Sequence record: ON286972 | Reading direction: 5' to 3' (one strand) | Source of the DNA: Escherichia phage A4 | Length of the DNA stretch: 64,000 nucleotides | In this document: positions 5,301-58,335 of the stretch, one piece after another | Numbering within the stretch: position 1 is the stretch's first letter | How the letters are laid out: every line of letters starts with the position of its first letter | Program-made: the position numbers and the translations under genes | Notes under the pieces: model-generated | Seen by the model: only the letters and a program-made list of their open reading frames with translations | What the model was told of the DNA's origin: nothing | The model's database searches: none

Positions 5301-7918
5301 AAATCTAATCCACCTTCAGGTGTAAATGTACCTTTAACAGTTAAGTCACCATGTGCAACTGTATCATTTTCTAAATTAATACCATCGGTATTAACAATAG
5401 AAGGAGTAGTTACAGAAACAGCAGAAACAGCAGCCAATGTACTTTCACCAGTAACATTTAATGTAGAAATGTTTGCTGTAGTTACTGTTGCTGTACCAGT
5501 TGTACTGTTAGTTGTAGTAATATCAGTACTTTGTAATTTTGGTAGAATGTTAGTTCCAGTAGCATCATTACTAATCACAGGACCAGCACTAGTTAAAGAT
5601 TTAACACTTACATCTGCTGCACTTAAATCTACAGTACCATCAACAGTTAGGTTTCCACCTATATGTGCACTTTCAGATACATCAAGTGTTTTAACAGTTA
5701 CATCAGCCGCACTTAGGTCAATAACACCAGCCGTTAAAGTTCCAGTAACATTCAAATCACCACCAACTGATGCATTATGATCTACACTTAGACCAGTTCC
5801 GGTTCCGGTAATTTGTGCGGAAGCTGCGGTCACTTTAGTAGTTGCTGTGATATTTGGGGCAGAGATAGTACCGTCAGATTCAATTGAACCAGTTTCTAAT
5901 GCATCAGAACCAACACCAGTAACTTTACCAGTAACTTCAACTTTCAAGCCACTAAAGAGTGCGTTTCCACCAACACTTAGATTAGTTCCCACTGCAACTT
6001 CTTCAGTTGTGGTTACAGAATTAGGTAGAATGTCTAGACCATCAACGTTTGCTTTAATTGCAGCACCAGATAGTGTACCAGTAACGTTCAAATCTTTAAC
6101 AGTGGTTGTTTGACCAACAACTTCAAATAAACCATCAACTACCGTGTTACCAACCAATGTGGTAGTACCGTCAACTGTTAGGTTTCCAGATGCAGTTACG
6201 TCAACACCTTTAACATTACCAGATGCAGTTACATCTTTAGGAGTAATGTCTTGACCAGCTAGTGTAATACCAGTTGTAGTTCCAGTAACAGTCAAATCAG
6301 TTATAGTTGTGCCTTTTAGAACGGAATCCCCATCAACTGTTAGTGTACCAGAAGCATCTAGATTAACACCACTAATATTACCAGAAGCAGTTACATCTTT
6401 AGGTGTAATATCTTGACCAGAAATGTCAGGAACAAAACCAGTAACTGTACCAGTGAAATTAACGTCTTTGAATTGAGCCTTACCATCCACATCTAGAGTT
6501 AATGTATTTGGATCTTGTACCGCATTACCAGTTATTTTCAAATAATCAAATAGGTTCAAACCTTTTGCTGTAATACCGTAGGTAGATGCAGATACATCAC
6601 CAAATGTAGCAGTTTTCAGTACTGTTAGATTTGCTGGGGTCATTAATTCAGACTGTACTTCGTTTTGTAGAATTACAGTTGGGCGTAAACCAGGAGCAGT
6701 ATATGTAAAGTTAACTTTAGCATTCGTGTCTGCTACGTTTCCACCTAAAGTGACAGATTTTAAATTAGCATTCGCAGTTGAACCAACAATATTAGATTCT
6801 AGGTTTAATGCACCTTTTAGTGTAGTTAGTTTTTCAACAACTAAATTATCCGCAGTAATATCACTTAGTACAAAGTTACCTGATAGTGTTCCAGTAATAT
6901 CCAAATCACCAACAGTAGTTTTACCAGTAATATTAGTAGTTCCATCAACTTGTAGGTCAGTTAATTGTGTTTTACCTTTAGTTACACGTAGAATTGGTGT
7001 GGTTGGATCTTGTATTGAGTTACCAGAAAGTGTTAGGTAATCAAATAGGTTCAAACCTTTTGCGGTAATACCATTGGTTGCTGCTGATACATCACCAAAT
7101 GTAGCAGTTTTAAGTACTGTTAGATTTGCTGGAGTCATTAGCTCGGACTGTACTTCGTTTTGTAGAATTACAGTTGGGCGTAATCCTGGAGCAGTGTATG
7201 CAAAGCCTAGGCGTGCAGTCGAGTCCGCTGCATTAGAACCTAAAGATACAGCTTTTATGTTTGCTACAGTATTAGTACCAATGATGTTTGATTCTAGGGT
7301 TACAGCACCTTTTAATGTAGATAGTTTTTCAACAACTAAATTATCGGTATTAACATCCCCTAATGTGAAATCACCATCTAATTTACCAGTTACAGTTAGA
7401 TTCTCAACGGTTGCACCAGTTGCAGTAATATCAGTTGCTGATACAGTTGCAATGGTTGCTTCATTAGCAGTTAATTTATCAAAGCTTGCAGTGGTTGCTG
7501 CCGCAGCAGTGAGGTTACCATTTAATGTTGTTGTACCATTAACTTCTAATGCAGAAGTGGTGGTATCTTGAAAAATTGCTTTTCCTGATGTTTGTGTAAT
7601 ATCTTTGGCAAAAGTAGAAGTGCCATTAAAAGTAGCATTGGAATTAATAGTTGCTGTATCGGAACCAGCAGTAGTATTACCAATAACTGTATTGCCAAGT
7701 ACATCCATTCCACCCTTAAGTGACGCTTTGCCTGTAACATCGAGTGTTGTGTTGATTGTTGCTTGATCTACTGTAATTGCAGTGAAGGTAGCATCAGCGA
7801 AACTAACGGTCCCCTTAATGGTTACGTTTTTATCGAAGACCGCATTACCTTTAACTGATAATTCTTTACCAACATTAGTATTACCAGTTACTGCTAGATC
7901 TGTTTTTATCGAGTACAT
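2381..7918 (-). CDS. long tail fibre protein, highly repetitive
   Basis: 1845-aa ORF rich in Thr/Gly/Val/Ala with recurring LTVDG and DLTVKSL beta-strand-like repeats and two tandem ~165-aa repeats; GGAGGG Shine-Dalgarno before the ATG. Confidence 0.6.
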   Translation of the reverse strand: MYSIKTDLAVTGNTNVGKELSVKGNAVFDKNVTIKGTVSFADATFTAITVDQATINTTLDVTGKASLKGGMDVLGNTVIGNTTAGSDTATINSNATFNGTSTFAKDITQTSGKAIFQDTTTSALEVNGTTTLNGNLTAAAATTASFDKLTANEATIATVSATDITATGATVENLTVTGKLDGDFTLGDVNTDNLVVEKLSTLKGAVTLESNIIGTNTVANIKAVSLGSNAADSTARLGFAYTAPGLRPTVILQNEVQSELMTPANLTVLKTATFGDVSAATNGITAKGLNLFDYLTLSGNSIQDPTTPILRVTKGKTQLTDLQVDGTTNITGKTTVGDLDITGTLSGNFVLSDITADNLVVEKLTTLKGALNLESNIVGSTANANLKSVTLGGNVADTNAKVNFTYTAPGLRPTVILQNEVQSELMTPANLTVLKTATFGDVSASTYGITAKGLNLFDYLKITGNAVQDPNTLTLDVDGKAQFKDVNFTGTVTGFVPDISGQDITPKDVTASGNISGVNLDASGTLTVDGDSVLKGTTITDLTVTGTTTGITLAGQDITPKDVTASGNVKGVDVTASGNLTVDGTTTLVGNTVVDGLFEVVGQTTTVKDLNVTGTLSGAAIKANVDGLDILPNSVTTTEEVAVGTNLSVGGNALFSGLKVEVTGKVTGVGSDALETGSIESDGTISAPNITATTKVTAASAQITGTGTGLSVDHNASVGGDLNVTGTLTAGVIDLSAADVTVKTLDVSESAHIGGNLTVDGTVDLSAADVSVKSLTSAGPVISNDATGTNILPKLQSTDITTTNSTTGTATVTTANISTLNVTGESTLAAVSAVSVTTPSIVNTDGINLENDTVAHGDLTVKGTFTPEGGLDLSPVDISSKSLTTTEGATIGGSLTVDGAINAAAADLTVKSLTSSGVITVTENTEPSILPKLTSTEATAGKLNVTGDATVGGKATVSGALEVTGTSTFGNAVTVNVGGITAKGGLTVASGNLKVAAAAVVDGSVSAGSYTSAGDKITLAKPTDVTGDLHVEGAFTATSVDFSTTDLTVKSLQVDNDVTIDGNLTITNADLETNSLASTTSTTVGTDLILTTGTITGAPTISGATTLSSTLHTVGAATFDGTVDVGGKITSKSIQVSATGVGVAVDNDATVGGYLTIGETLGVTGLSTLSGGVDAGSALIKTTGEVQSATLQTSGKATLASVDVSGDAVVTGDLTVKGAFTPEGSLNLGSAVLNVEGVDASANLTALGSVTAGTTLTVTGVSTLNGGTNTTTLSTSGKATLSSAEVTGALSAGGALAVTGTTNLTGKLTAGEAALSSLTVSGDVTINGTLNPGTLDLSTTPVDAKSLKSRETLEVTGLSTLTGGLAVSANTAITAAGDITGTTITTTGKGTFGSAAVTTGLTVGGALVVNGASVNISDASTVTMPKADISAKGIIIGPKVSSRPETIQFVGDTYIGSNLFVAGNINGSVDLAGQDISLNSLTSNTTIHAVEDITTDEDMHARAATFGAQGSTANSLTVNGNAVTTGDFTVSGKIIGTLDQSASAVEVKSLTSTTFIAAGTTLTVGSTITAEGLSTLKGGIATNGATINAGDGAITTTGDVSGANVSASGAVTTATITTSGLATMASAKINTTLAVTGATTLSDVVTIGKKLTVSTGGIEITAGGFNVVAGGAAITGATNLKGAVTLGSASADAITVTGTSSFAENATFAKDVTIEGTLHTDIADLVTESVTTKKYAVTPSPKVTASTAAVGGNWTPDGLSNVYYITLDQNVMMTPITGLIGSGKAGSYYIYVAQDTTGGHSFDWDGTYANVGGEINTNPGGVSIVQLIYDGYSPVVDMFIAQRTA
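6404..7396. repeat. tandem intragenic duplication (2 x ~495 bp) in the long fibre gene
   Basis: DNA near 6541-6700 and 7041-7200 is near-identical; encodes two ~165-aa copies each containing TAPGLRPTVILQNEVQSELMTPANLTVLKTATFGDVSA. Confidence 0.7.
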
Positions 7919-8952: not shown

Positions 8953-11124
8953 TTATGGAAGTGTAATGTATGTAATTGGGGATTCGGCTAACAATGGAGT
9001 CCCATCAGGGAAAGCAGTTTTTATTTCGTCTGCTATATCAATGCAAAATACCGAGTTGACCACGTATGTAGCTCGTGTTATATGAGTGTGGAGATCAGTC
9101 CCATTTTCACCAGCACCAGGAATTACAATTCTTGTACCTGCTGCTTTAGCATATTGGTTTGTACCCCATGCAGTGTTATGTGTTCGAATAGTTTTAGCAC
9201 CAACTACTGCTGCTTTAAGCTGTTCATATTTTCCTACGAATGCACCAGCTACTGTTACTACATATTTACCCCCAGATTGTTTGTGTAAAATTGTTCCTTT
9301 GGGGAAATATCTACCACCTGGGAATTCATCATAAGGTAGATAATATTGCTCCGTGACTGGTATCAGTACTGGGCCACGGTGACCAGTTCCATCTATTTCA
9401 GTTGTTACCGTGAAGTTATTACCAGATTGATCTATTCTATCAACATACATTCGTGAGAATGAATAATTTGATATATTAGCGTCATCTTGAACTATATTAC
9501 CAATCCAACTGGTATATGTATAATTAGTTCTGGTATAAACGCCACCACCTTCACCATCTTGATATTGACCAATTACATCTAAATTCTTTGTATAAATTTT
9601 ACTGAATTTTGATGATGATGGTAATCCACGCCAATATAATTTTTCACAAGTTATATTGTGCATATCAGTTTCGTTAGTCCATGCGTTTGCACCGGATGTG
9701 TATATTTCTATACTAGATTCAGGAATGAAAACGTTTTGAACTTTAAAATCTTTTGGTGGACCTGCATACCATGCATATTGGTGTGTTGCATCAGCAGGGT
9801 TAACACCCCATGTAAATTTAATCATTCTGTTTGTTGGTGCAGTTGCTGGATCATCCAAATAGCGACCAGTTAATCCGTCAACAACAAAATCTTGACATCC
9901 ATAAGTGATGATACCTGCGGCAGTTAAGCCAGTTCCAGTTGATATTGTGGTTGATGGAAATGTCTCATTATCTATTATATTAAAATTCTTACCGACTTCA
10001 ACGTGTATACATTGACGACAGTTATATACTCTATTTCGAGCAATAGTGAAGTTTTTAACATATTGACTATCTGGAATATCAACTCCATATGGACCTTTAC
10101 CAGCAACACCGATACCGATACCCCAGTTTGATAGTGGGATTGGAGCGTTAGTACCATCAACGTTTTCAATATGGTTTCCTTCAATGATTAGACCATCAGT
10201 GAAGTGTCTTGAAACTACGTTTAATTCAATACCATCACCATAGATATCGTGAATATGGTTATATGCATAGCGAGCATATTTTACTATCTCACCACTACCA
10301 CCTTGCTGTAGAACACCAAAGTTAACATCGTACATTTCATTGAAACAAAAGTCGAGAATACCTTCTGAAGTTAAATCACGCATAAAGAATGCACAGGTGA
10401 ATGTTGTACCATAAAAGCGGTTGAAATAGAACTTACCATTACCACCAGAAAACTGAATATAACTACGAGCAATGTTTGCCCCTTGTATTTTACAGTTGGT
10501 TGCTGATATCATTGTTTTACCAGTGCCAGTTAATGTGCCACCATACCATTCAATATTTTCAAAATATATTGCTTTGGATAAACGATAAACACCTTTACCT
10601 TGTATTTGGATATCATGAGCTTTAGCGTAATCAGCACAAGCTTGAACTGCGTCAGTATCATCAGCAATACCATCACCGATAGCACCAAATTCTTCAGGTG
10701 TTATATAATACAAAGCTTGTTGTAGTGTTCCACCAGAAACCAAACCAATATAATCAGAACCATTAGTACTGGATAATACTTTAGTATTAACATACATTGA
10801 TTTTATCCATGCACCATTCTTCTTAGCGAAAATATCTAGGATACCACCACTTTCTTGGTCTAATTGCAAATAAGTATAATTATTCTTACCAAGACTATTA
10901 TCTGGGATTTCATTCCCAAATAATACGGTTGGGTGGTCAGCGAGATACTTTGCAGTAATCGCTGAATTATCATTAATCGGTTCACCAACTTGTACGGGCA
11001 ATAAGATGCTTCCGAAACTATCTGTAATAGACAGGGAATTGTTAGCATAATTAATTAATGCCCCATTTTTACCAAGTATAAACTTGGTTTTCATTGTCCC
11101 TTCAAAGTTAGAAAAAACTGCCAT
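8953..11124 (-). CDS. tailspike protein with probable parallel beta-helix (putative depolymerase)
   Basis: 723-aa ORF; shared N-terminal anchor MAVFSNFEGTMKTKFILGKNGA; central region has periodic hydrophobic/Asn/Gly turns (IIEGNHIENV..., FTIARNRVYNC...) typical of pectate-lyase-fold tailspikes. Confidence 0.5.
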   Translation of the reverse strand: MAVFSNFEGTMKTKFILGKNGALINYANNSLSITDSFGSILLPVQVGEPINDNSAITAKYLADHPTVLFGNEIPDNSLGKNNYTYLQLDQESGGILDIFAKKNGAWIKSMYVNTKVLSSTNGSDYIGLVSGGTLQQALYYITPEEFGAIGDGIADDTDAVQACADYAKAHDIQIQGKGVYRLSKAIYFENIEWYGGTLTGTGKTMISATNCKIQGANIARSYIQFSGGNGKFYFNRFYGTTFTCAFFMRDLTSEGILDFCFNEMYDVNFGVLQQGGSGEIVKYARYAYNHIHDIYGDGIELNVVSRHFTDGLIIEGNHIENVDGTNAPIPLSNWGIGIGVAGKGPYGVDIPDSQYVKNFTIARNRVYNCRQCIHVEVGKNFNIIDNETFPSTTISTGTGLTAAGIITYGCQDFVVDGLTGRYLDDPATAPTNRMIKFTWGVNPADATHQYAWYAGPPKDFKVQNVFIPESSIEIYTSGANAWTNETDMHNITCEKLYWRGLPSSSKFSKIYTKNLDVIGQYQDGEGGGVYTRTNYTYTSWIGNIVQDDANISNYSFSRMYVDRIDQSGNNFTVTTEIDGTGHRGPVLIPVTEQYYLPYDEFPGGRYFPKGTILHKQSGGKYVVTVAGAFVGKYEQLKAAVVGAKTIRTHNTAWGTNQYAKAAGTRIVIPGAGENGTDLHTHITRATYVVNSVFCIDIADEIKTAFPDGTPLLAESPITYITLP

Positions 11125-12875: not shown

Positions 12876-13490
12876 TTGGAAATGAAATTAGAAACAGAAC
12901 AACCAAAACTGTTCGTTAAGGGTCATGTACTAATTACTGACGTTACTGATCCTGCGAATGAAAAAATTGTACTCGATAAATCGAACGCAATTCACCCAGA
13001 AAACATGAGTACTGCAATCGCTAACGCACTAGCATATAACCAAGATAGTTCTGGTATCCCAGTTGGTTCAATATCAGAAATGCGTTTTGGTAACGGTGGT
13101 ACTGTAGTATTGAGTACTGGGCGTGTAACATACAAAAAACCACGTGTAACTTCATTTGGTGGTCTATATTCACAAACATATTTGAAGAAAATAAACCCAC
13201 GAATCTCAAGTAGTATTGATTCACAATATAATAACATCACAACTGTTCATATTCCAGGTCAAGCATACACCGATATCGTTTGTATTTGTACTTTGGGACT
13301 AGGTGAACCAGTAGACCAGAATACAAGTTCAAGTACTAACATGGACGGTACTTACGTATTTGATGAATTGGGTTTATATACTGATGGTGATAATGGTATG
13401 CCGTTATCTCATATTATTTTCCACCCAGTAGAGAAAAGTGCGAACCGTGTTTTACAAATAAAATATACTGTTCGTGTACAACTACAGTAA
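12876..13490 (+). CDS. hypothetical protein
   Basis: 204-aa ORF tightly packed after the previous gene. Confidence 0.3.
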   Translation: MEMKLETEQPKLFVKGHVLITDVTDPANEKIVLDKSNAIHPENMSTAIANALAYNQDSSGIPVGSISEMRFGNGGTVVLSTGRVTYKKPRVTSFGGLYSQTYLKKINPRISSSIDSQYNNITTVHIPGQAYTDIVCICTLGLGEPVDQNTSSSTNMDGTYVFDELGLYTDGDNGMPLSHIIFHPVEKSANRVLQIKYTVRVQLQ

Positions 13491-13500
13491 GGAGTGGTAA

Positions 13501-14598
13501 ATGAATAATTATACTATATATCGCAGTGATGGAAGCGTTTATGCTTCCATTCCAAACAACGTTATCCTTGGTCCTAACCAACCAGGTACTAACCCAGTTC
13601 CTATTAACTTAGTTGGGCGTAATAAGGTTGGTTATGGTCAAGCATGGAACGAAAACTTTCTACACTTAGTTGAGCATTTTAGTGGTCCATCTGCACCACG
13701 TGGTAGTGTTAAAGGACAAATTTGGTATAAAAACACTGGTAACATTGGTGAACTACTTATTTCTCTAGTAGATAACGCTCGTCAACCAATAGACACTGCT
13801 TCTGAAGCAGATTGGGCATCAATCCCAATGATCACAATTTTCAACACCATCCCAGATGGCGAAAGTAGTGTTATGGGTCGTATGGTTTTGACAAATAACG
13901 GTGATTCACTCCGTGTTTTGATGAAAAACAAAGAATGGCGTGAAATTCAAACATCTCGTCCTGAAAACAAAGAATATTCATCACTATTGGATATAAACTA
14001 TGATTTAGGTAAAAAATATATTGAATTTACCCAAACTGAAAGTACTAAGACACTTGCATATTTCAACTTAGGTGGTGGTTCTAAGGTAGATCCAGACAAC
14101 TGGACATCATTTAGTAATGGTAATGGTGTTTTCCAATTCGGAAGTAACTATTTCTATGATTTGAAGATTATGATTCGTGAAGTACAGGATAGTACTGGTG
14201 AAGTTGTTTCTTTACCATTCAACTCCAAGACATTTATCATTAAAGGTCAATTCTATATTGACAATGAAGGTGCTTTTGTGCCAGGTTCTATACCATGTAG
14301 TGAGATTCCAGACCCACGTCGAATTACAAGTCTGGAAGTTATTAAAGATGTTATTACCAGTTCACAACCAACTTGGGATGTTAATATGGTAGTTAATGGT
14401 GTGGACCCAACAATTCCAAATCCAGGTGGAATGACGAAGACTGATTATGAAGCATGGGTTATCAACTCACTCAATACTAATAAACATTTAGGTTTCCGTG
14501 TTGATGGTTCAATTTCCGGTTTAGGAACTGGTCAAAGTGTTAAGCTTCAGGCTTCAGTACTGCTTAATATAACTGGTATTCCTATTATTGGTGTGTAA
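13501..14598 (+). CDS. hypothetical protein (possibly structural)
   Basis: 365-aa ORF with GGAG Shine-Dalgarno; followed by a strong bidirectional terminator. Confidence 0.3.
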   Translation: MNNYTIYRSDGSVYASIPNNVILGPNQPGTNPVPINLVGRNKVGYGQAWNENFLHLVEHFSGPSAPRGSVKGQIWYKNTGNIGELLISLVDNARQPIDTASEADWASIPMITIFNTIPDGESSVMGRMVLTNNGDSLRVLMKNKEWREIQTSRPENKEYSSLLDINYDLGKKYIEFTQTESTKTLAYFNLGGGSKVDPDNWTSFSNGNGVFQFGSNYFYDLKIMIREVQDSTGEVVSLPFNSKTFIIKGQFYIDNEGAFVPGSIPCSEIPDPRRITSLEVIKDVITSSQPTWDVNMVVNGVDPTIPNPGGMTKTDYEAWVINSLNTNKHLGFRVDGSISGLGTGQSVKLQASVLLNITGIPIIGV

Positions 14599-14600
14599 TA

Positions 14601-14633
14601 CAAAAGAAAAGGAGCCATTGGCTCCTTTTTTTA
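14601..14633. terminator. bidirectional rho-independent terminator
   Basis: aaaagaaaaGGAGCCattGGCTCCttttttt at a convergent junction; T-runs on both strands. Confidence 0.7.
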
Positions 14634-15095
14634 ATATCTATATGGTAGACTATTGACAAATTGTGTACCAGCGTTTATACTTTCCCATAAAGAATAAAAA
14701 TCTTTCATCAAATTGACATTTAATAATGTATTTTTAGCTCCAGGGTGAAGAGGTTTAGGCCATGAGCCAATTTTAACCCAAGCATATCCAGAGCTTTCCT
14801 TATTGAGAATAGGAACAAACTCATTTTCAACAACAACAACGAAAGAATAATATTTGAACTTACCATTCTTAGTACAAAATACATCAAAGGGTATAATATC
14901 AATTATATCAGGTAACGAATCTCCCAATTCTTCTCGTATTTCACGATGCAAAGCTTGCAAAGGGGATTCGTTGTATTCGAGTTTTCCACCAACAAAAGCC
15001 CAGTTGTTTGAATAGGTACTGCTTTCAGATCTAAGATTGAGCATCATATGACCAGTACTTTTAGATAAAAATATTGCTCCTACTGCCTCATTCAT
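14631..15095 (-). CDS. Nudix hydrolase
   Basis: Complete Nudix box GKLEYNESPLQALHREIREELGD (GX5EX7REUXEEXGU). Confidence 0.8.
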   Translation of the reverse strand: MNEAVGAIFLSKSTGHMMLNLRSESSTYSNNWAFVGGKLEYNESPLQALHREIREELGDSLPDIIDIIPFDVFCTKNGKFKYYSFVVVVENEFVPILNKESSGYAWVKIGSWPKPLHPGAKNTLLNVNLMKDFYSLWESINAGTQFVNSLPYRY

Positions 15096-15104
15096 ACATC
15101 CTCC

Positions 15105-16448
15105 TTATTTGTCAGTGAATGATATCTTCCAATATCCCTGACGGTATTGCGACATAATACTCTTATGCCATTTGAATTTTTCATTGTATCTATAATAGTG
15201 ACTGTCTTGACGATTGTAAACATAATTAAGTACTGAAGACGGTTCAATTAGTTCAGCACCTTCATTTGTTATTTTGAACAAATAATTTGGTGGAATAACT
15301 GTGTCTTTGTAAATTAAATCTCTTGCACTATTATTTACATAATATTGTTCAGGTATAGCTGAATACAATTCTGCATCTTTGGATATCAACGCTATGATAG
15401 AGTAATCGACAACATAATTACTACTATCCAATTGAACAACAATCTTGTTTGCCTTATCTTCGTGTCCCATTGATATTATAGTTCCACGCAAAGGATTACT
15501 TTCTTCGATTGCTTGTTGGAATTTAATACCGAGTTTCTTATCTTTGTATTCAGGCTCTAAGTACTGAATATATTTCTCCCAAGAATATATACCACCGTTG
15601 GATGTTCTCTCACTCATACTTTGACTTACCAATGTAAGGACATAAGTATCTGCGTTTTTATCCGATGCTTCTGTTATTTCTTCAACTTTGATGCATAAAT
15701 TTTTAGGAGTGAATACATCAGTAATTATATCCTGATAGTTTCCTATTTCAAAATCCAATTCATCACGACCACTTTCTATATTAGTTGTTATCTGTTGTAT
15801 AAGCTTTGGCTTTTCAACGATAGCAGGTAATGATAACCATATAGTTGTTTCAAATGTAAGAACCATAATATCAAGTTCAGTATCAGTTCCTTGTGGAAAT
15901 CCACGAGTACTGAATTGACAGTCAATTAATTCCACATCACTTTGTGCCGTCCAGTCTAATGGGTTATCAGATAGTTGCAATTGAACACTTGGAGCAAACA
16001 ATGTACTGATTTGCTCATATAATTCCATTTTTGTTTGCAGTTGTGTAACCCATATGTTTAAATCAAATGTAAATGTCCAAGGTACAGGGTTATGTCTTGT
16101 TATTTTATACTGCTTATCCAACTCAGGAGTGAATTCATTTGGTGCAGGGGACTTATTTGTCCCCATAATAATAGTTTCGTTCGCATTTGAACGAATACTT
16201 TTACGATCCAATTTCAATTGATTCACACTAATAGTCATGATCGGTGCAGTAGGCATTACGTTCTCACTGTTACCATTGATAACAGCAGCAGCCAAACGTG
16301 AAATATCTGCATATCTACATGGAACTTGCTTGTATCTTGGTTTACCTTCGTCATCAACTCCATTTTGTACTTGAAACCCACCAAAAATCCTGATAAGATG
16401 TTTCAGTACTCGACGAAATTGACCATCATAGTAGTATTCTACTTTCAT
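15105..16448 (-). CDS. hypothetical protein
   Basis: 447-aa ORF; start overlaps the stop of the upstream gene (ATGA), suggesting translational coupling. Confidence 0.35.
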   Translation of the reverse strand: MKVEYYYDGQFRRVLKHLIRIFGGFQVQNGVDDEGKPRYKQVPCRYADISRLAAAVINGNSENVMPTAPIMTISVNQLKLDRKSIRSNANETIIMGTNKSPAPNEFTPELDKQYKITRHNPVPWTFTFDLNIWVTQLQTKMELYEQISTLFAPSVQLQLSDNPLDWTAQSDVELIDCQFSTRGFPQGTDTELDIMVLTFETTIWLSLPAIVEKPKLIQQITTNIESGRDELDFEIGNYQDIITDVFTPKNLCIKVEEITEASDKNADTYVLTLVSQSMSERTSNGGIYSWEKYIQYLEPEYKDKKLGIKFQQAIEESNPLRGTIISMGHEDKANKIVVQLDSSNYVVDYSIIALISKDAELYSAIPEQYYVNNSARDLIYKDTVIPPNYLFKITNEGAELIEPSSVLNYVYNRQDSHYYRYNEKFKWHKSIMSQYRQGYWKISFTDK

Positions 16449-17953
16449 TCTTTATCCCCTTTTGCACGGTATAGAGTGTTTGGTTTTGCCGCGTCGTGTA
16501 ATGGGACACGATTAGGACTGTTAACGAACTCGGTTAGGGCTAAATCTGCACCTTCCCACGGTTTACGTCCACCATAATCAAAGATTACCCAAGATTTTTT
16601 AACTTCACTGTATTCCCAAAGAGTTACAGGGTTGTAATCCGTGCGATAGAAGTATTCACCATCAGTAGGATCAGATGGGAACGTGTCCCCTTCTTGCACA
16701 GTGCCGCGAGCAGGTGGAATTTTAGGTCTTGAATCTTGTTGCGAGTCTATGTTACCATACACACTGTTAGAACTGAAAGGTAAGTTAACATGTGTATCTG
16801 GTGGAACTTGCCATGTACCATCTAAGTACTGGTACATTGTTGGTTTTTCATATTGAATGTAAAAATCCTCAGCATTTTTAGGTGGAACGTCACCAGTTGA
16901 GTATTCAACGTCACAATTGAGCCACTTTTTGAGAGATTTGTCATATTGATACAGGGAATATCCAGTAACATCTGAATCATTCTCTTTATAGAAGAAATCA
17001 CCATCAGATGGTTTACGTGGAAACGTTGTTCCATACGGTACTGAAACATTTTCCCATGAATTGTTGACTTTCTCTTTCAGTACTGGTAAAGTTTTCTTCA
17101 AGAAGTACATTTTGTTAGCTGGTTCTTCTGGGAAGTCATATCCATTAAGAACAAACTTTGACAAATCGGTTGTATCTGGTCTATCATCGTATATATGTTC
17201 ATTTGTGAAGTGGATATAAGGGACTTCATCATCAGCTTGCATTATAATACGGTTCATGATATCCATTTCGTTATCATAACTGCTGTTTGGTGAAGAACCA
17301 TTGGAACCACTGTTACCATTACCATTATTTGGGTCATCTGGGTTGTCTGGATAATCATTATTAGTAAGTAAGTCCGCGTACTCAGGTGAATCGGTAATAG
17401 GTTTGACACGAATTTTGTAAATGTGATGTTGCCATGTTGCAGAGTAACCTTCAGATGTTCTAAAGCCGTCCTGAACTACGTAAAAACGGTTTAAACCTGA
17501 ATCTTTACCAACAACATCGAAATCACGAAGGTTTGGAAGTTCAATTACATCACCAGGCATAATTTTTCTTCCCAATCGCTGCATCATTGTGTTATAATGA
17601 ACTGTAATGTCCATTGTGTTGAAGTTAAAGAACAACCCAGGAATTTTTAAATCAGGTGTTGCTTCTTGGACTTGATAAACACAACTAAGTGTGATAGCCT
17701 CTAGATTGTAACTACGATTTGAGGTTTCACCAAAAATTAGGTCACCAATACTTGACGCAGCGGAACCATCAGTGATATAATCACCACCGTAAGAATAGTC
17801 GTTAGGAGTTGTTGATGGTTTAGCACCGACAAAGGCATAAAGCCACATGTCTACGCCACCAATATTGTATTGTTCAGCAATGGCAGAATCTATGAATTTA
17901 TAATCATTGGTTCTACCTTTTTTCCACATTCTGTATGCCATTTTGTTCTCCAA
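16445..17953 (-). CDS. hypothetical protein with internal repeats and Asn/Gly-rich linker
   Basis: 502-aa ORF; repeated FPxxPSDGDFFY...W units and an NNDYPDNPDDPNNGNGNSGSNGSS low-complexity segment; GGAG Shine-Dalgarno. Confidence 0.35.
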   Translation of the reverse strand: MENKMAYRMWKKGRTNDYKFIDSAIAEQYNIGGVDMWLYAFVGAKPSTTPNDYSYGGDYITDGSAASSIGDLIFGETSNRSYNLEAITLSCVYQVQEATPDLKIPGLFFNFNTMDITVHYNTMMQRLGRKIMPGDVIELPNLRDFDVVGKDSGLNRFYVVQDGFRTSEGYSATWQHHIYKIRVKPITDSPEYADLLTNNDYPDNPDDPNNGNGNSGSNGSSPNSSYDNEMDIMNRIIMQADDEVPYIHFTNEHIYDDRPDTTDLSKFVLNGYDFPEEPANKMYFLKKTLPVLKEKVNNSWENVSVPYGTTFPRKPSDGDFFYKENDSDVTGYSLYQYDKSLKKWLNCDVEYSTGDVPPKNAEDFYIQYEKPTMYQYLDGTWQVPPDTHVNLPFSSNSVYGNIDSQQDSRPKIPPARGTVQEGDTFPSDPTDGEYFYRTDYNPVTLWEYSEVKKSWVIFDYGGRKPWEGADLALTEFVNSPNRVPLHDAAKPNTLYRAKGDKE

Positions 17954-17982
17954 AATAAATCGGTATATCTGTATTTACTAGG

Positions 17983-18010
17983 TAGACAAACTGAAAGAAT
18001 GTGATATAAT
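17983..18010 (+). promoter_or_regulatory. sigma70-like early promoter upstream of clpA
   Basis: TAGACA-N16-TGaTATAAT (extended -10), ~40 nt before the clpA AGGAG/ATG. Confidence 0.5.
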
Positions 18011-18049
18011 GATTTTAATGACAGTGAGAAGAATCACATAGGAGAGAAC

Positions 18050-20335
18050 ATGAATTTAACACAGCTATTCAAAAGCAGCGACGACCTTGCAACCTCTATG
18101 GGTCATACTTTCTTGACAATCGATCACATCAGTGCTACAGTGCTGACAGTGGATAGCATTATTGATGTATTTGGGACAATGAACGTTGACGCAACGAAAG
18201 TGCGTGATCGCTTGATTGAATATCTGAAAAATACCAATGTTCCACACGCACCACGCAGCACTATGGGGGAAGAAGTTAATCGCACTACACTAATCGTCAA
18301 TCGTGTAATGCAAGAACTATCTAAGAAATCTGTCATCGAACAACTCAAACGTGACGATTTCTCAATTGATGCATTCTTTGTACTGTTTGAATGTTTGTCA
18401 TTCCCAAACACTGCATTAGAAGCAGCATTGTTGGAAGAGGGTGTAACTCGTACTGAAGCGGCCCGTACTCTTCAGAAATATGTAGAATCTCTTGATTCTG
18501 AAATTAACCTACAAAGCATCGCTGATGAACCTACTGGGGAGAAAAAGGTGGCTCAACAACAACCTGCATCAAAACAGAAATCAATCGAAGATTACACGAC
18601 CAACCTAACACAGTTGGCTAAAGATGGTAAACTGGACCCAATGATTGGTCGTCAAAAAGAACTGGACGCACTAATTGAAACTCTGGCTCGTAAAACTAAG
18701 AAGAATGCTATTCTGACTGGTGAAGCTGGTGTTGGTAAAACTCAGATTGTTGACGGTCTAGCACAAGCCATTGTTGATGGTAATGTACCAGAACATCTAC
18801 AAAACATTGAGATTTTATCTCTTAACGTTGGTGCACTAACTGCTGGTACTAAGTATCGTGGTGAATTCGAAGAACGTATTGATAATCTTCTCAAAGAACT
18901 GAAGAAACGTGAAAATACAATCGTGTTCATTGACGAAATCCATATCATGGTAGGTGCAGGTTCTGCAAGCAACGGTTCAATGGATATGAGTAACATGTTG
19001 AAACCAGCACTATCTCGTGGTGAGATTCGTGTAATCGGTGCAACTACTTATGATGAATACCGTAAAAACATCGAGAAAGATAGTGCATTGACTCGTCGTT
19101 TCATGAAAATTGACGTAGTTGAGCCAACTATTGAAGAAACTCGTGCGATTGTAAATGGTCTGCAAGGTACATATGAGAAATTCCATAACGTAACTTTCAG
19201 TACTGAAGCAATGGATGCGATTGTGTCTTTGAGTGATAAGTTCCTGAAGAACAAACACTTCCCAGACAAAGCAATCGACCTTATGGATGCAGCAGCAGCT
19301 AAGAAACGTTCACGCGATGAATCTGATAATGTGATTTCACTACGCACAATTCAAGAAGTTGTTGCGGGAATTGCAAACTTGGATATCAACGTAGTAGCTT
19401 GTACTGAAACTGAACGTATGAAGTCACTACCAGCAGCACTTCGTAGCCGTGTATTCGGTCAAGAAGAAGCAGTGGAGAAATTGGTTGATAACGTAATGGT
19501 TGCACGTGCAGGACTTCGTGAGAAAGCAAGTGTTCAGGGTGCATTCATGTTTGTCGGTCCGTCTGGTACTGGTAAAACTGAAATCACTAAAGCACTAGCC
19601 GATGCAATGGGTTCTGAACTGATTCGCTTCGATATGTCTGAATTTTCACAAGAACATACCGTTGCAAAACTAATTGGTTCACCTCCTGGCTATGTTGGTC
19701 ACGATACTGGTAATGGTCTGCTACTCGACAAAATTGAGCAATTCCCGAATGCAGTTCTACTGCTGGACGAAATTGAAAAAGCACACCCTAAAGTACTGCT
19801 AACCTTCCTACAGGTTCTGGATGAAGGTCACCTAACTGGTTCACAGGGTAAAACTGTATACTTTAACAACGTAACAGTTATTATGACAACCAACTTGGGT
19901 GCAGCAGATGCAAATAAACGTAGTCTGGGTTTGAGTGGTGGTGAAACAGCACAGGAGAAGGCAGTGAAAGCTTTCCTACCACCTGAATTCCTAAACCGTA
20001 TCGATAGCATCGTGAAGTTTAATGAGCTATCCAGTGAAGCTATCCAGAGCGTTATTGATAAGTTCATGGCTGGTCTAAATGAGCAAATCAAAGAGCGTGG
20101 CGTGAAAGTAACACTGACTAAAGCGGCACGTGAATGGTTAGAAGCAAATGGTGTTCAGCCTGGAATGGGTGCACGTCCAATGAAACGTACAATCGAGCAG
20201 AACATCCGTGTTCCTCTGGCTAAAGAAATGCTATGCGGTTCACTGGTAAATGGTGGTAACGTAACATTTGATGTGATTAACGGAAAGTTGGGTATCAAAC
20301 CAAAACGTCAAGTTAAAACCCCATCTGTAGTGTAA
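18050..20335 (+). CDS. clpA: ClpA-like AAA+ unfoldase (Hsp100/Clp ATPase, two AAA+ modules)
   Basis: Walker A GEAGVGKTQ and GPSGTGKTE; Walker B IVFIDEIH and LLLDEIEKAH; N-domain present; no ClpB middle coiled coil; LGL tripeptide (KRSLGLSGG) at the ClpP-docking IGL-loop position; reads close to E. coli ClpA along its length. Confidence 0.9.
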   Translation: MNLTQLFKSSDDLATSMGHTFLTIDHISATVLTVDSIIDVFGTMNVDATKVRDRLIEYLKNTNVPHAPRSTMGEEVNRTTLIVNRVMQELSKKSVIEQLKRDDFSIDAFFVLFECLSFPNTALEAALLEEGVTRTEAARTLQKYVESLDSEINLQSIADEPTGEKKVAQQQPASKQKSIEDYTTNLTQLAKDGKLDPMIGRQKELDALIETLARKTKKNAILTGEAGVGKTQIVDGLAQAIVDGNVPEHLQNIEILSLNVGALTAGTKYRGEFEERIDNLLKELKKRENTIVFIDEIHIMVGAGSASNGSMDMSNMLKPALSRGEIRVIGATTYDEYRKNIEKDSALTRRFMKIDVVEPTIEETRAIVNGLQGTYEKFHNVTFSTEAMDAIVSLSDKFLKNKHFPDKAIDLMDAAAAKKRSRDESDNVISLRTIQEVVAGIANLDINVVACTETERMKSLPAALRSRVFGQEEAVEKLVDNVMVARAGLREKASVQGAFMFVGPSGTGKTEITKALADAMGSELIRFDMSEFSQEHTVAKLIGSPPGYVGHDTGNGLLLDKIEQFPNAVLLLDEIEKAHPKVLLTFLQVLDEGHLTGSQGKTVYFNNVTVIMTTNLGAADANKRSLGLSGGETAQEKAVKAFLPPEFLNRIDSIVKFNELSSEAIQSVIDKFMAGLNEQIKERGVKVTLTKAAREWLEANGVQPGMGARPMKRTIEQNIRVPLAKEMLCGSLVNGGNVTFDVINGKLGIKPKRQVKTPSVV

Positions 20336-20369
20336 AAAGAAAAGGAGAGCCATTGGCTCTCCTTTTTTG
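20336..20369. terminator. bidirectional rho-independent terminator, near-copy of 14601-14633
   Basis: aaaagaaaaGGAGAGCCattGGCTCTCCtttttt at the clpA / giant-gene convergent junction. Confidence 0.7.
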
Positions 20370-23300
20370 TTATTGAATATTCAATAGATTTTCTATATCA
20401 GTTCCAGTAATTGACAATCCATTTCTGAATGTATCTAATGGAATTGGTGGATAGAAGTTTTGATATTGAGTAAACTTATCAATGCTCCCCAAGTTCAATC
20501 CATTAAAGCTATAAGACGTTCCTTTAGTAAAATTATGTTCCGCACTATACATGACACCACGTAATAGACGGTCAGTGTTTCTTACCTGAACCTTCTCATA
20601 TCCAACCACAATAATATCATCATTCTGTGCCGCAGCACCTGACAGTACTGAATCAGTAATGATATATGGGCTTATTGAACGAGGTTTAGCAACATAAGTG
20701 ATTGCCTCATCTTCAACGGTTGTAATGTTAATTACACCACATCCTACTTCTTTGATGAACGTGTTATTGACCACAGGTTGTGCATACTGCCACACGCGAT
20801 CATAACTTAGTACTGGTTGAATAACATCAACATCGTATTCAAATACAGTGATTTCAATACCATCAGTCATTTTAGCTCGTACTAGTTCACCCAGGACACC
20901 TTTACCAGAGATTGGCTGATTGTAACCATTATCAATTGTAATACCATCAACTTCAAAAATCTCATTGGAAACTAACCACAAATCAATTTCATCAGGTGTG
21001 ATACCATCATTGAATTTACCACCATATAATGTTTCGTCATAGAATACTTCATAGTTCAATGCATGTATACTGTAATGACGATTATTTTCATATAGTTTAA
21101 GTCCATTGTCATCAAACTCAGGGTCTTGGAAAGTGCGGATTCTAACTAAGTTCATTGATAATGTATAAAAACGCTCATTACTTTCACGCTTAGTTATACT
21201 ATCAAACATTAACACTACACCATTACTATCAACCAACTCTACGTTACCATTACCCAATACACGTACTGTGTATAGTTTTGGTTTTTTAGAGGATTGGATT
21301 TTACTAGCACTTAATATAGTTACCCAGTTACCGTCTTGGAATCGTACATAATCTTCACCATCTGGCGTGAAAATCATAACCTTATCACCATCTTTCAAAC
21401 CTTCATCGTGAACCTTGATTTCAGTAATTGTTTTAATTTCTGAAATTGGGAAGAAGTATTTTTCAGATTCTTTGAACACATCTTTACCCATATTCTCAAT
21501 GACAATATCATATGATGGAATACTTACAACTGCTTCTGACATATTGTAAGGGTTTTGTACGATCATACCCTCAATCTGGAATCTACTTGTGTCTTTTAAT
21601 TGCTCTTGAGCAACTTCATCGAAACCGTAACCATCAACAGTGAAACGTAATTGTGCCATTGTTCTTCCTGATGGGTTTAGTTCAGAAATGTCGATGATAT
21701 AAGGATCAATCTCACTATCTTTAACTTCCCATTTAATGGATTTGGTTTGTGATTCCAATGCCAAGTTATCGAATGCATTCATATCATTGAAATATTTTGC
21801 AGTATTGATACTTTCCAGTACTTCAACATATGCAGAATACATTGGATTATTCTGGTCTTGTGGTAAATCATTTAAATCAATTTCAGCCAATACAACTGAT
21901 TCTCCGGTTGTTATGAATAAGTCTTCCATGAAATCAGATATGCTGTAACTTTCAGGAATCGGTAGATATTCACCTGCCGCATTCACAACATACACATATT
22001 TCCTTGGCATCATAACAAAAGCATACTTATCAACTGCACGATTACTTAAGATTTCTCTAGCAACATAATAATGATCTAGAATATTCTTATTAAATGTTTG
22101 TCGCATTGCAGATAACACATGAACGGTATCAGAATAATAACGGTCATTTAATGTGGTATCATACTTGTAGCAATAAACACCATATTCTATCTCTAGTATA
22201 TTACGAACTTGGTCTTCATTAGTAAACTCAGGGTGATTTTTCTTGATCATATCGACATATTTTTCATATAATTCAATACTAATCTCAAAATAACCATAGT
22301 TGTAATCACTACTTGCACTGAACCCAAAAGGTAGGCGAGTATTAGGATTATCATTATAGTTCGTACCCTTAAATGGACAACCAATCTCATTAGAAACCAT
22401 GTCATCAGATATATTCTTAAACATTTTCACACGAGTTGCTAATGTATTGTATTGAATATATTTCTTAACGTCTTCTAAAATGTTACTGTTGTTTGTATCA
22501 GCAGTTACCTGCTCCAAATCAGCAGTAAATTGGTCAGTCATTGCAATATCAGTTGAATGGGCTTTATACCATGCATCAATTCCTTTAATGACACCATTAC
22601 TAATATCCAAATCTGAATATTTGGTAGTCATTTCAATACCAATCTGTGAAATTAAGGTATTATTATCATATTCAGGGAATGTATAAACATATCTCTGTAA
22701 TTCATAATCATTTCCTATATCCGAAGCATTAGATTGATACTTACTATTGGTTGATTTCAACTCATCAATTGTATAATTACTATCATACGGGTCACATTGA
22801 ATATTATCATAATGCATAATAACGTCGATTTCTTGGAATCGTCTGTTAGGTGTGATAAAGTCACTTGGTAGTGAACCAATCTTTTCCCAACGTTGGGTTA
22901 CGTCATTAAATTGTGCATATTCTAAATCCCAAATGTCTTTTTCAGTCTTAACCCACACACCATCAACTAAAATATAGCCATCTGGGTCAAGGTCATTACT
23001 GATACCATTAATCAAATCATCATCAGAAGTTTTCTGTTCTATTTGAGAACGGATTTTGGTTCTGTATGGTTTAACTTCTTCGAAGTACTCAACAATTTGA
23101 TTAATCAAGTTGTCATTTGAGTAGTTTTGTACGAGAGATTGTTCTAAACCTACAATATAGATATATGAGGTTTTGAATACCCAGTCAACAACACTTTGTT
23201 CAGTGTGTACGTACTTAACCATATCAAAAACAATATTACTTTGATATAAGTTGAATGAATTTTTCAACAACGCTAACGCATTACGAACGTTAACCTCATG

Positions 23301-26300
23301 AGAATTCAAAGAACCATCATCATTGTAAACATTGTACCCAGAATATAACATTGAATTCAATTCAACTGTACTATTCTCACGTCCAATAGCTTTCCAGTAT
23401 ATATTATTACGAGATGCAGTCTTGATGTATAATGTCCAAACACCATCACTATCAGTTACACGGATAATATCACCAATTTGGTAATTTTTAGTGTTTGCGT
23501 CATCTAAACTAACTTCTTGTGTATATTCAGTGTTGCTATCGTATCCAGTATCGTACCAATCAGCCAGATTCCAGTACTGGGTCATATCCAAAGATGTACC
23601 AAGTGATTCTATGAAGTCAGCTTGTTTAATCATCTTGTGTTGACCTTCACCTCTATTTTCTAGAGTGATTGTAACAGTACTACCAACTGCACTTGGACTG
23701 TTCATCAATTGAATGTATCCATTTGGATCAATGTGAACAAAATATACTGAACTAGAAGATAATGGTGCTGGTAGAGTTCCGATGGAACTTACAAATACTG
23801 CATCATTCTCTTTAAAGCGGTTATCTTCTGGTGCAATTACCAATTCATTGTTAAATGATAGAACACGGAATGTAATATCATTTGGGTTCATTTTTAATGT
23901 TTTCACATTAAACACATCATTCATAACAACACTGTTAGTTGTGATGTTCTGTGAACGGTAAAAGTTATTTGCACTCTCAACAAACGCACGACGAGCTTCA
24001 ATGACATTCTGGAACCAAGTTTTATTAGAACCTAAACCAGTTTCAACTTTAGGATAAATTATTTCATTTACAACACCAGTTGAAGTAGTTTCTTGACCAA
24101 TTAGTGAGTTCCATAGTGAATTCCAAATATCTGGGTTAAAGTCATAACTATCACCTTCTTTACAGAGTTGATATTGATCATGCTTCAGTACTTCGATATT
24201 GTCATTTCTATATGAAATTGTCAAAATGCTTGTATCATCATTAACTTCAAATTGCATATTACTTAGAATGAAACTATTTTCATTAATAGGTGCAAACCAA
24301 GGAACATTCAATTGTGTTGGATCTTGAATAATACGTGCAATATCAGTACAAGACTTACTACGAGTAGTCATTGGTGGAACATAAATGGTATTACGAACCC
24401 AGAAATAATAACGAACTACATATGTATCAGTGATTGGATCATATTCCATAGATGAACTGTAGTTCTCATCCATTGCAATCCCACTTGGGAGATACATAGT
24501 ATTGTTTTTATTTTTATTGGCTTGTTCTGCACAATATTTTTCCCAGTTGTATGGTTCTACTGGTGAACTAACCCATTCTAGAACATCAATAACACTGTGT
24601 GGTAATAATTTACCCCAATTATAACGCTTATATTCATTAGTTGCTTTTACATCAACGTTACCATCCTCATCAAAGATTGGACGGGTATAATCCAGATAGA
24701 ATGCAGTGCTAGTGTTCCACCACACTTTACCTACCTTTTCAGCACCCCATGCTTGTAATAGTTCACCGTTACTGCTATACTGTGCTGGGTCCACTGGAGA
24801 GATGAAATCAACATCTTGCATTGCAACCCCAGGAATAACACCGTTAATTGGGTCAAACACATTCAAATACAATGCAGTAATGTTTGTTCTTTCATCATAC
24901 GTAGTAGGACGGTCAAACAAAGTGCTTTCAGGTGCACTGTAACTATATTTTTTAGCAATATATTCATCGCGTTCTTGTTGAGTACTAAATCTACTAACAT
25001 AACGATACAAACGTGGTGCTGATTCTACTGTTGAAAAGTCAATAGTAATGGAAGTGTCAAATGGCACTACCATAACTTTTGGATCTAGTCCAGAAGTGTA
25101 GTATTGGCATTCATCACGTAGGGCATCAGGCATAAAGTTTGTTTCATCAACAAAATAATAATAATCACCATCATTGAGTGGGATATCATCAGACAATAGT
25201 ACTTTACAATATTGCTCAGCATATGGATCTTCACTTTCAATTGGTGTAATAGAAACCATTGTAATACCAGTATCTACTAAATCATACACATTCCATTCGT
25301 TATTGATATCTTGGAACATCCAAACAGATGTTGGGATTTTACCAGAATTATTCATATAACTAATGCGGTCTTGATTTGCAGTTTCGTAATTTAATGTGGT
25401 ATAATCAATTTCATCTAGGGTTACTGGTCCAATATTAGGTAATTGGATATTCTCACTTCTCCCATTACGCATAGGGAATGAGAATTTACCTTTTGGACGA
25501 CTAATCCAGCGTGAATCTTCACCAATTTCACCATAATATACAATTTCATTCTCAGATTCAACCTTATCGGAATAACGGTCAAATGTAATCATTTGTGGTT
25601 GTTGTTTAAACTCATTATTAATTAGTTTAAATTGAAGATTTTTAACACCATCAATGTTACCATAAGAACCAACACGGAATGCCCATTCTTGTAATGCTTT
25701 ATACTCATCAGTATTATATGATTTAGATACACGTAATACTTTTTCTAGTACTTGGTTAGTGCCTTTATCATGAATAAAACCTTTATAGAAATCAATTCGA
25801 CCAGGCTCATTAGTGATCATACGTTGTAAGTAATCACGAGACTGATAGCCAATTAAGTGGTTTGAAAGTTCATTTAATTGAACATCACTAACTGGGGTTT
25901 CATTATCATAATACTGTTGGAAATTAGACACCAAAGTTTCAAATGATGGTAATGTACCAGCTTCTAGGATGATAAATCCAGGAGCTTGTAAACGTCCAGA
26001 CCATGAACCAGTGATATATCCATACAATTTAATCAATTCTTGAACTGCACCATAGGTTGGTTCATAGATATAATCACCGAAAATCGTCTGATCATCAAAA
26101 ATAACAGCATGTTCATAAGAACTGATACTTAAACGAATAAGTGCTATGCGTTTATTTGATTCTTCAGTAGTTCTTACCGTGAATATGTTACCAATACGAG
26201 ATGTTTCAATCTCAAATTGACGTATACCTTGGTTTGAATCATCTAATAATGACCAAACACCACCACTATTTTGTGCAATTGACTGAACTGAACCAAAATC

Positions 26301-30347: not shown

Positions 30348-30380
30348 GTATAGGACTCCATAAATTCGTTCATTCATTTG

Positions 30381-40822: not shown

Positions 40823-40839
40823 TTGAAGTATTTATAGGT

Positions 40840-53890: not shown

Positions 53891-53902
53891 CATTTTAAAA
53901 TT

Positions 53903-53918
53903 ATAAATATTTGTATAT
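53903..53918 (+). promoter_or_regulatory. late-promoter-like motif before scaffold gene
   Basis: ATAAATATTTGTATAT, then ATTTCAGTACT leader and AAAGGAG Shine-Dalgarno. Confidence 0.5.
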
Positions 53919-58295: not shown

Positions 58296-58335
58296 ATATA
58301 AATATGATATATATTAAACAAAAAAGGATTTTTAC

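Follow-up and report, generated by a model that had tools for sequence, protein, structure and literature searches.

Within a stretch of 64,000 nucleotides from Escherichia phage A4 (sequence record ON286972; hereafter the window, meaning the whole stretch that was analysed), the gene at 14631..15095 on the minus strand encodes a 154-residue Nudix hydrolase of the MutT-like clade. It is a real and intact gene. The open reading frame (ORF) starts with ATG, and its product matches Pfam PF00293 at 56.8 bits (E=3.2e-15), passing the gathering cut-off of 21.1, and phrog_1198 ‘MutT/NUDIX hydrolase’ over its full length with an E-value of 2.3e-42. A six-frame search of the 64-kb window with a regular expression for the Nudix box returned a single site, at residues 37-59 of this ORF, and no second Nudix gene. 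The box, GKLEYNESPLQALHREIREELGD (residues G37-D59; 14919..14987, minus strand), follows the consensus GX5EX7REUXEEXGU as G37-x5-E43-x7-R51-E52-I-R-E55-E56-L-G58-D59, in which R51, E52, E55 and E56 are the catalytic residues and the sole deviation is the replacement of the last U by Asp. The AlphaFold2 model has a predicted local distance difference test (pLDDT) score of 92.6, with a confident Nudix fold, and a Foldseek search with this model gave 575 PDB matches at E≤0.001, the best 50 of which are all Nudix enzymes. It is nearly certain that the protein, as predicted, is an active Nudix enzyme.

Alignment of 61 homologues revealed that G37, E43, R51, E52, E55 and E56 are invariant. A preliminary description of this DNA had reported a complete Nudix box and had named the loss of catalytic Glu residues on careful alignment as a ground for rejecting it; E52, E55 and E56 are kept in all 61 homologues, and the complete box is borne out by the invariant Glu and Arg residues together with the PF00293 match. 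A second block, composed of E92, F93, P95, N98, E100, G103, W106, H117 and G119, is invariant in the same 61 homologues and lies in a family signature at residues 92-119 (E92-F93-x-P95-x-x-N98-x-E100 ... W106 ... P113-x-P115-L-H117-P-G119; 14739..14822, minus strand). Residue E100 of this signature is likely the distal metal/base acid; in the proposed active site, metal binding would fall to E52, E55 and E56, with E100 as the distal acid. In addition, residue 38 next to the first Gly of the box is Lys in at least 90% of the jumbo-phage clade. The gene is under strong purifying selection, with a ratio of nonsynonymous to synonymous substitution rates (dN/dS) of 0.05 against phage 121Q and 0.15 against phage CBB, at saturated dS. 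Its amino-acid identity to 121Q and CBB is 90% and 72%, compared to 77-81% and 59-64% for the three flanking structural genes, and its GC content is typical for the region. The protein ends with a tail motif F146-x-N148-S-L150-P151 (14643..14660, minus strand), in which N148 is present in 47/47 and L150 in 44/47 of the tail-bearing sequences. The last block of the AlphaFold2 model has a pLDDT of 53, and the tail is modelled with low confidence and is probably disordered; the motif may be a docking peptide. PA5oct-type and shorter relatives lack this tail.

Upstream on the same strand lie two genes, which the preliminary description had taken as unknown genes translationally linked to the Nudix gene. 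They can now be named. The nearer one (15105..16448, minus strand) encodes a 447-residue gp15-like tail-sheath stabiliser, or tail terminator, matching PF16724 with an E-value of 1.3e-22 and phrog_11196 with an E-value of 1.6e-213. The farther one (16445..17941, minus strand) encodes a virion structural protein of ~498 residues, which matches phrog_11591 from residue 5 onwards (E=1.3e-253). The tight linkage itself stands. The gp15-like gene starts within a 4-nucleotide ATGA overlap with the end of the farther gene, and a 9-nucleotide spacer GGAGGATGT (15096..15104, minus strand) separates the TAA stop of the gp15-like gene from the ATG of the Nudix gene. A Shine-Dalgarno sequence GGAGG follows this stop directly and ends 4 nucleotides ahead of the Nudix ATG, an arrangement by which translation of the Nudix protein would be tightly coupled to termination on the gp15-like gene. 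For the first gene of the series, the ATG at 17941 is favoured over a TTG at 17953 by the upstream GGAG Shine-Dalgarno sequence, the PHROG alignment and the ATG starts of the orthologues. In the gp15-like protein, the T4 gp15 domain (PF16724) spans residues 5-239 of 447, and the C-terminal ~200 residues form an extra uncharacterised domain that is found clade-wide (~445-457 residues in seven relatives); T4 gp15 has ~270 residues.

The sequence GTAAATA at 17972..17978 (minus strand), 31-37 nucleotides 5′ of the first ATG of the series, resembles the late promoter of T4, which is TATAAATA. The core of the motif, TAAATA, does not vary between the window, 121Q, phAPEC6 and CBB. On both strands of the window, [AG]TAAATA occurs 29 times, with 20 copies located within 70 nucleotides upstream of genes compared to 0.62 expected, and ATAAATA occurs 20 times, with 17 copies within 70 nucleotides upstream on the strand of the gene compared to 0.43 expected. 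This motif, [AG/T]ATAAATA or GTAAATA, is thus enriched ~30- to 40-fold 5′ of genes and looks like the late promoter of the phage; it also occurs at ~20 other intergenic sites, such as 40829-40836, 53902-53909 and 58297-58304. No [AG]TAAATA motif precedes the gp15-like gene or the Nudix gene, and within the series it stands before the first gene only. At the other end, a hairpin with a 10-base-pair GC-rich stem flanked by an A-run and a T-run (14607..14629), identified by a terminator scan as a bidirectional intrinsic terminator, separates the Nudix gene from the convergent structural gene at 13501..14598 and ends both units. As the late motif is found at the first gene alone, we infer a late operon of three genes, in which the Nudix gene would be the last, after the virion structural protein and the gp15-like protein. 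Expression would run from a T4-late-type promoter through the three genes to the bidirectional terminator, and the Nudix protein is likely made late from this tail operon. The main text of the PA5oct expression study does not mention the Nudix gene.

A megablast search with positions 13000-19000 of the window matched 62 phage records, whose identity across the full query is ~78% at best. These records belong without exception to RaK2/121Q-type jumbo myoviruses of 320-386 kb (Asteriusvirus, Alcyoneusvirus, Mimasvirus and similar), and judging from these matches the phage is one of the RaK2/121Q-like jumbo phages, if a somewhat divergent one. Using the Nudix protein as the query, tblastn found 95 records, in which most orthologues carry the label “MutT/NUDIX hydrolase”. 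This annotation is present in more than 60 GenBank relatives with identities of up to 92%, and the closest protein cluster is 92% identical. The orthologues 121Q gp578, RaK2 mutT/ORF066, phAPEC6 gp249, CBB_232 and that of GAP32, all of PHROG 1198, share 72-92% amino-acid identity with the protein encoded in the window. They are of equal length and occupy the same place after a gp15-like gene and before the same convergent terminator. We found no material difference between them and the gene in the window, apart from genomes that are ~78% nucleotide-identical at the nearest. The gene is therefore an ordinary one that is already annotated in close relatives, neither a new system nor peculiar to the window. 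What we add is its non-orthology to T4 NudE, the structure of its operon, a synteny that holds in 80/80 loci, a subfamily signature that recurs in polyvalent proteins and the lack of support for its presence in virions.

The order of a gp15-like gene followed by the Nudix gene is found in the window, 121Q, RaK2, CBB, phAPEC6 and PA5oct, the Nudix protein of the last being 54% identical, and metagenome contigs show it for Nudix proteins that are 43-59% identical. When IMG/VR was searched with the family alignment, 581 relatives were retrieved, and the synteny was read in the best 80 of the 581 (42-72% identity). Each of these 80 Nudix genes is preceded on its own strand by a gp15-like gene, with a gap of at most 108 nucleotides in 68 loci. 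The remaining 12 loci (L051-L054, L056, L065, L067, L089, L091, L092, L095 and L097) bear inserts of 358-816 nucleotides, which hold either a same-strand ORF, of a family of 97-214 residues, or an HNH endonuclease on the opposite strand. Another insert, in locus L012 (1775-3685), encodes a 636-residue DUF7487 protein, and the junction of the two genes looks like a hot spot for insertions. For PA5oct (NC_071039.1), the deposited Nudix gene gp322 (7103..7420, 105 residues) begins inside the Nudix box; the homologous frame reaches upstream to at least 6929, overlapping the end of the gp15-like gp321, and the annotation is therefore N-terminally truncated.

Such a constant pairing raises the question of a partnership in tail assembly, in which the Nudix protein would work in contact with the gp15-like terminator, be it as chaperone, as transient assembly factor or as low-copy part of the neck or tail, with hydrolysis tied to tail completion. 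The 80/80 adjacency with its short gaps, its recurrence in PA5oct and in contigs from metagenomes whose Nudix proteins are as little as 43-45% identical, the tight translational coupling and the conserved, probably disordered F-x-N-S-L-P tail, which could be a docking peptide, are all consistent with it. However, the synteny can also be explained by simple vertical inheritance in a rigid structural module, and the 12 loci with inserts, HNH endonucleases among them, keep both genes despite the interruption. Moreover, the distant members phiRSL1, BcepSauron, SCTP-2 and GR11A (32-38% identity) have non-structural gene surroundings, with no gp15-like gene within 5 kb of the Nudix gene, and the linkage thus marks the orthologous clade and not the whole subfamily. 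To our knowledge, there is no precedent for a Nudix protein in tail assembly. The virion data of relatives, given below, also speak against such a partnership, and we consider it very unlikely. That the two proteins work together physically is a long shot, for which the constant gene order and the F-x-N-S-L-P tail are the only hints.

Virion proteomes have been published for four relatives. In the list of phAPEC6 virion proteins obtained by electrospray ionization tandem mass spectrometry (ESI-MS/MS), the Nudix protein gp249 is absent, whereas gp248 (gp15-like) and gp250c were found (PMC7247149). Similarly, CBB_232 (Nudix) is absent from the ESI-MS/MS list of CBB virions, in which CBB_231, CBB_233 and CBB_234 were found (PMC5259590), and in the PA5oct record the Nudix gp322 carries no mass-spectrometry note, compared to neighbours that are marked ‘ESI-MS/MS’. 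In the text of the RaK2 paper, a term search turned up neither MutT nor gp066 (PMC3622015). The gp15-like protein was found in the virions of CBB, phAPEC6 and PA5oct, and in RaK2 it escaped mass spectrometry itself (PMC3622015). The particles of phAPEC6 contain thymidylate synthase, a topoisomerase II subunit and RecA-like, SSB and PhoH-like proteins (PMC7247149 Table 1), which indicates that non-structural enzymes can occur in such particles; the Nudix protein was nonetheless undetected there. Packaging of the Nudix protein in the virion is thus unsupported in these relatives, by the proteomes of phAPEC6, CBB and PA5oct and by the RaK2 text alike. A stoichiometric structural role is therefore unlikely, although a few copies per virion are compatible with these data, and the protein likely acts in the cytoplasm.

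T4 also encodes a Nudix enzyme, nudE, and the preliminary description had set clear orthology to a housekeeping enzyme of the NudE type of T4-like phages as a second ground for rejection. The results of BLASTP, PHROG and hidden Markov model (HMM) searches are all against such orthology. No BLASTP alignment between the two proteins was obtained at E≤100. T4 NudE has phrog_1185 as its best PHROG and matches phrog_1198 at only E=3e-7. Against the HMM of the window family it scores 13.8 bits, compared to 80-200 bits for true members, and its alignment to the family profile ends at position 94, before most of the EFxPxLNxE...W...PLHPG signature is reached. In its setting, T4 NudE is like the Nudix protein of the window, both being small phage Nudix proteins encoded beside late or virion-associated genes (e, ipII and ipIII in T4). 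Aravind's group described such Nudix genes as a recurring theme in large myoviruses, and Nudix genes are present in 45% of jumbo phages compared to 0.25% of small phages (PMC9503650). T4 NudE, also known as NudE.1 (gene e.1), hydrolyses FAD, Ap3A and ADP-ribose, and was reported to decap nicotinamide adenine dinucleotide (NAD)-RNA in vitro (bioRxiv 10.1101/2024.04.04.588121). Within the literature examined, it is the sole phage Nudix enzyme described biochemically, and in the recent anti-defence literature we found no relevant characterised phage Nudix protein of the phrog_1198 type.

Comparison with the NCBIfam models ranked MutT-fusion, MutT, NudI and NudG first (33-44 bits), followed by RppH (~25 bits), NudB, and NadM-Nudix and NudE (~14 bits); the Nudix protein of the window reached none of the equivalog cut-offs. 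It falls short of the 8-oxo-dGTP diphosphatase MutT on both models (NF008044, 35.8 bits versus 148; TIGR00586, 35.3 versus 97.9), and likewise of the pyrimidine (deoxy)nucleoside triphosphate ((d)NTP) enzymes NudI (NF012016, 34.2 versus 95) and NudG (NF007834, 32.9 versus 156). The RppH models (NF001934-NF001938) gave 15-25 bits versus cut-offs of 116-259. For the ADP-ribose/NADH type, NudE gave 13.8 bits versus 169 and NadM 14.2 versus 449, and NudF and NudC were unlisted. By a rule that Dunn et al. are said to have set out in 1999, specificity within the superfamily is marked by a Pro ~15-16 residues after the box or by the NADH-pyrophosphatase motif SQPWPFPxS. The Nudix protein of the window has no SQPWPFPxS motif, and its residues 74-75 are Cys-Thr, with no Pro 15-16 residues after the box.

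A search with the family profile against PDB sequences gave a similar ranking, with MutT, NudI, NudG and BdRppH first and the Dcp2 catalytic domains next; among the 56 matches, there is no chain named ADP-ribose pyrophosphatase and no solved structure of a subfamily member. The best Foldseek match is NudI/YfaO (E=1e-9, TM-score, that is template-modelling score, of 0.68, 29% identity), and MutT-like proteins, NUDX1, NudC, RppH and NUDT15/18 follow within about two logs of E-value. In a fold search against BFVD, the nearest structures are family members, with a T4-type NudE (from phage IME08) ranked 38th. MutT, NudG, NudI and BdRppH thus share the single-domain fold and are the top matches in sequence, profile and structure, and BdRppH and NudG also have an ‘R...W-x-F-x-GGK-x-E’ context in common with the Nudix protein of the window. 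It differs from these enzymes in equivalog scores far below the cut-offs and in a signature of its own in the substrate-side half. The sequence comparisons thus place it within the MutT-like radiation, set apart by that signature. Since all equivalog scores fall short and the structural matches are spread over only two logs of E-value, the substrate class is unreadable from homology, in line with the preliminary description, which had committed itself to none.

The same searches bear on the processing of RNA 5′ ends, by which an enzyme like RppH, BdRppH or Dcp2 would, late in infection, convert 5′-triphosphorylated or nucleoside diphosphate-capped RNA to 5′-monophosphorylated RNA and speed up the turnover of host or early phage transcripts. 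BdRppH (3ees) is the top single-sequence match in the PDB (E=1.2e-6), the Dcp2 catalytic domains align to profile positions 8-143, which is nearly the whole profile, and E. coli RppH and NudC are among the top Foldseek matches. T4 NudE.1, with its reported NAD-RNA decapping, would be a functional analogue. The low scores of the RppH models, which MutT, NudI and NudG outscore, argue against this reading, as do the 154-residue domain with no evident RNA-binding extension and the lack of any linked RNA-metabolism gene. We hold a function at RNA ends to be improbable.

To delimit the subfamily, an exhaustive profile search was run over 1.84 billion representatives and yielded 94 clusters at E<1e-30, and roughly 2,500 at E<1e-10. 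The signature at residues 92-119 is retained in at least 140 of the best 150 profile matches. Among these 150 are 64 multidomain proteins of 240-1726 residues, of which 64/64 keep the signature and 64/64 match phrog_1198. Their partner domains include ART-PolyVal (7), peptidoglycan hydrolase (7), ParB_N (2), DUF6934 (2), DnaJ (1) and GNAT (1), in addition to tandem Nudix domains (2). Such architectures are those of the polyvalent proteins of Iyer et al., for which delivery together with the DNA has been predicted (PMC5512222). The Nudix domains fused to ART-PolyVal, lysozyme/Hydrolase_2 or ParB_N share R22, F80, EFxP, N98, E100, W106 and PxPLH-G with that of the window. They are however embedded in proteins of 250-1700 residues, whereas the Nudix protein of the window is standalone and its orthologues were undetected in the virions of relatives. 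The two groups also differ at position 38, where Ala is found in 47/64 multidomain relatives compared to the Lys of the standalone jumbo-phage clade, and their substrates may therefore differ. Altogether, the Nudix protein represents a distinct phage-specific subfamily and a core gene of RaK2/121Q/PA5oct-type jumbo phages.

This kinship suggests another function, that of an effector on NAD or ADP-ribose. Its targets would be ADP-ribose, immune signals derived from NAD+, ADP-ribosyl adducts or NAD caps, and it might be carried in a few copies in the virion and released on infection. All 64 multidomain proteins of the best 150 matches have the signature, and the seven ART-PolyVal, seven peptidoglycan hydrolase and two ParB_N fusions are typical of virion-delivered polyvalent proteins (PMC5512222; PMC9503650); Nudix genes amid morphogenesis genes have also been argued to be likely packaged (PMC9503650). 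In addition, the Nudix protein is probably made together with tail proteins, and its gene always adjoins that of the tail terminator. The Nudix protein is however missing from the proteomes of phAPEC6, CBB and PA5oct and unmentioned in the RaK2 text, and the difference between Lys38 and Ala38 suggests that findings on the fused domains may not carry over to the substrate of the standalone clade. The models of the ADP-ribose/NAD type scored lowest, and neither the SQPWPFPxS motif nor the Pro 15-16 residues past the box is present. Moreover, 121Q encodes a second Nudix protein, gp477 (183 residues, box GGTVESTDISLEDALRREVQEEMD), overlap-coupled to the Sir2-like gp476 (L018 20175-21475). It lies in a non-structural region outside the window and belongs to an unrelated Nudix family, scoring 17.6 bits against the HMM of the family studied here. 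The coupling of a Nudix gene to a Sir2 gene has been tied to NAD/ADP-ribose chemistry (PMC9503650), and gp477 is therefore the more natural candidate for that chemistry. We regard the effector function as rather unlikely.

Our preference, held tentatively and at slightly less than even chances, is for a triphosphate-type nucleotide as the substrate. This leaning is based on the affinity to MutT, NudI, NudG and BdRppH, the GGK context and the existence of the separate Sir2-linked Nudix protein; two of the distant members, those of phiRSL1 and BcepSauron, are near deaminase genes, which we counted towards it. We propose that the product of the gene is a single-domain pyrophosphohydrolase of the MutT-like clade, catalytically competent and Mg2+-dependent, and that it would most likely act in the infected cytoplasm and not as a stoichiometric part of the virion. 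Its substrate would be of the nucleoside-triphosphate type, for example a non-canonical or pyrimidine (d)NTP or another triphosphate nucleotide, hydrolysed to the nucleoside monophosphate and pyrophosphate, which is the least certain step of the proposal.

Several points weigh against this preference. The first is the substrate class itself, which, as shown above, homology does not reveal. House-cleaning of the dNTP pool may be redundant, as 121Q encodes a MazG-like NTP pyrophosphohydrolase beside nrdAB and the dihydrofolate reductase gene; 121Q also has two dCMP deaminases, and pool cleaning and ADP-ribose processing each have other candidate genes in that phage. Why an enzyme of the nucleotide pool should be tied to the tail terminator in 80/80 loci is not obvious. 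The sister domains that share the signature, being fused to ART-PolyVal or cell-wall hydrolases, point towards injected effectors linked to NAD or ADP-ribose. Furthermore, the negative proteomics is compatible with a few copies per virion, and the gp15-like protein of RaK2 escaped mass spectrometry as well. A bolder proposal, which we think quite unlikely, makes the Nudix protein an obligate companion of the tail terminator. It would be either a few-copy, hitherto undetected cargo of the tail or neck that is set free on infection and destroys a nucleotide-type host signal or cap, as predicted for the ART-bearing polyvalent sister domains, or an enzyme whose hydrolysis is coupled to tail completion, and the FxNSLP motif would dock it in either case. 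Compared to these alternatives, a cytoplasmic enzyme acting on triphosphate nucleotides is the function we favour. Identification of the substrate would reveal a need of late infection, be it keeping the nucleotide pool clean for a 350-kb genome, processing RNA ends or removing an NAD-derived or other nucleotide signal, and the invariant pairing with the tail terminator together with the link to polyvalent Nudix domains offers concrete and cheap entry points for experiments.

Beyond the operon, the gene clpA (18050-20335) lies on the plus strand, divergent from the Nudix operon and with no late motif. Its promoter at 17983-18010 (plus strand) is a near-consensus sigma-70 promoter with an extended -10 element, TAGACA-16-TGTGATATAAT, and is invariant in 121Q, phAPEC6 and CBB. 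The preliminary description had placed the Nudix gene in a terminator-bracketed block with clpA. The two hairpins, at 14607-14629 and 20340-20366, are indeed present, but clpA falls outside the Nudix expression unit: the opposite strand and the sigma-70-like promoter of clpA rule out co-expression of the two genes. As the Nudix operon stands behind GTAAATA on the other strand, the two terminators bracket two divergent units, of which clpA is probably the earlier one. 121Q also encodes ClpS-like, ClpP-like and HslV-like proteins. A scan of the 64-kb window for tRNA genes found none. Convergent with clpA, and separated from it by the strong hairpin at 20340-20366, is an ORF of 3335 residues (20370-30377, minus strand), orthologous to 121Q gp582 ‘virion structural protein’ and to phAPEC6 gp245, a 382-kDa protein found in virions. 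On the other side of the Nudix gene, a 723-residue ORF (8953-11124, minus strand) is the positional counterpart of a 121Q gene labelled ‘colanic acid-degrading protein’, which is likely a tail-spike depolymerase.

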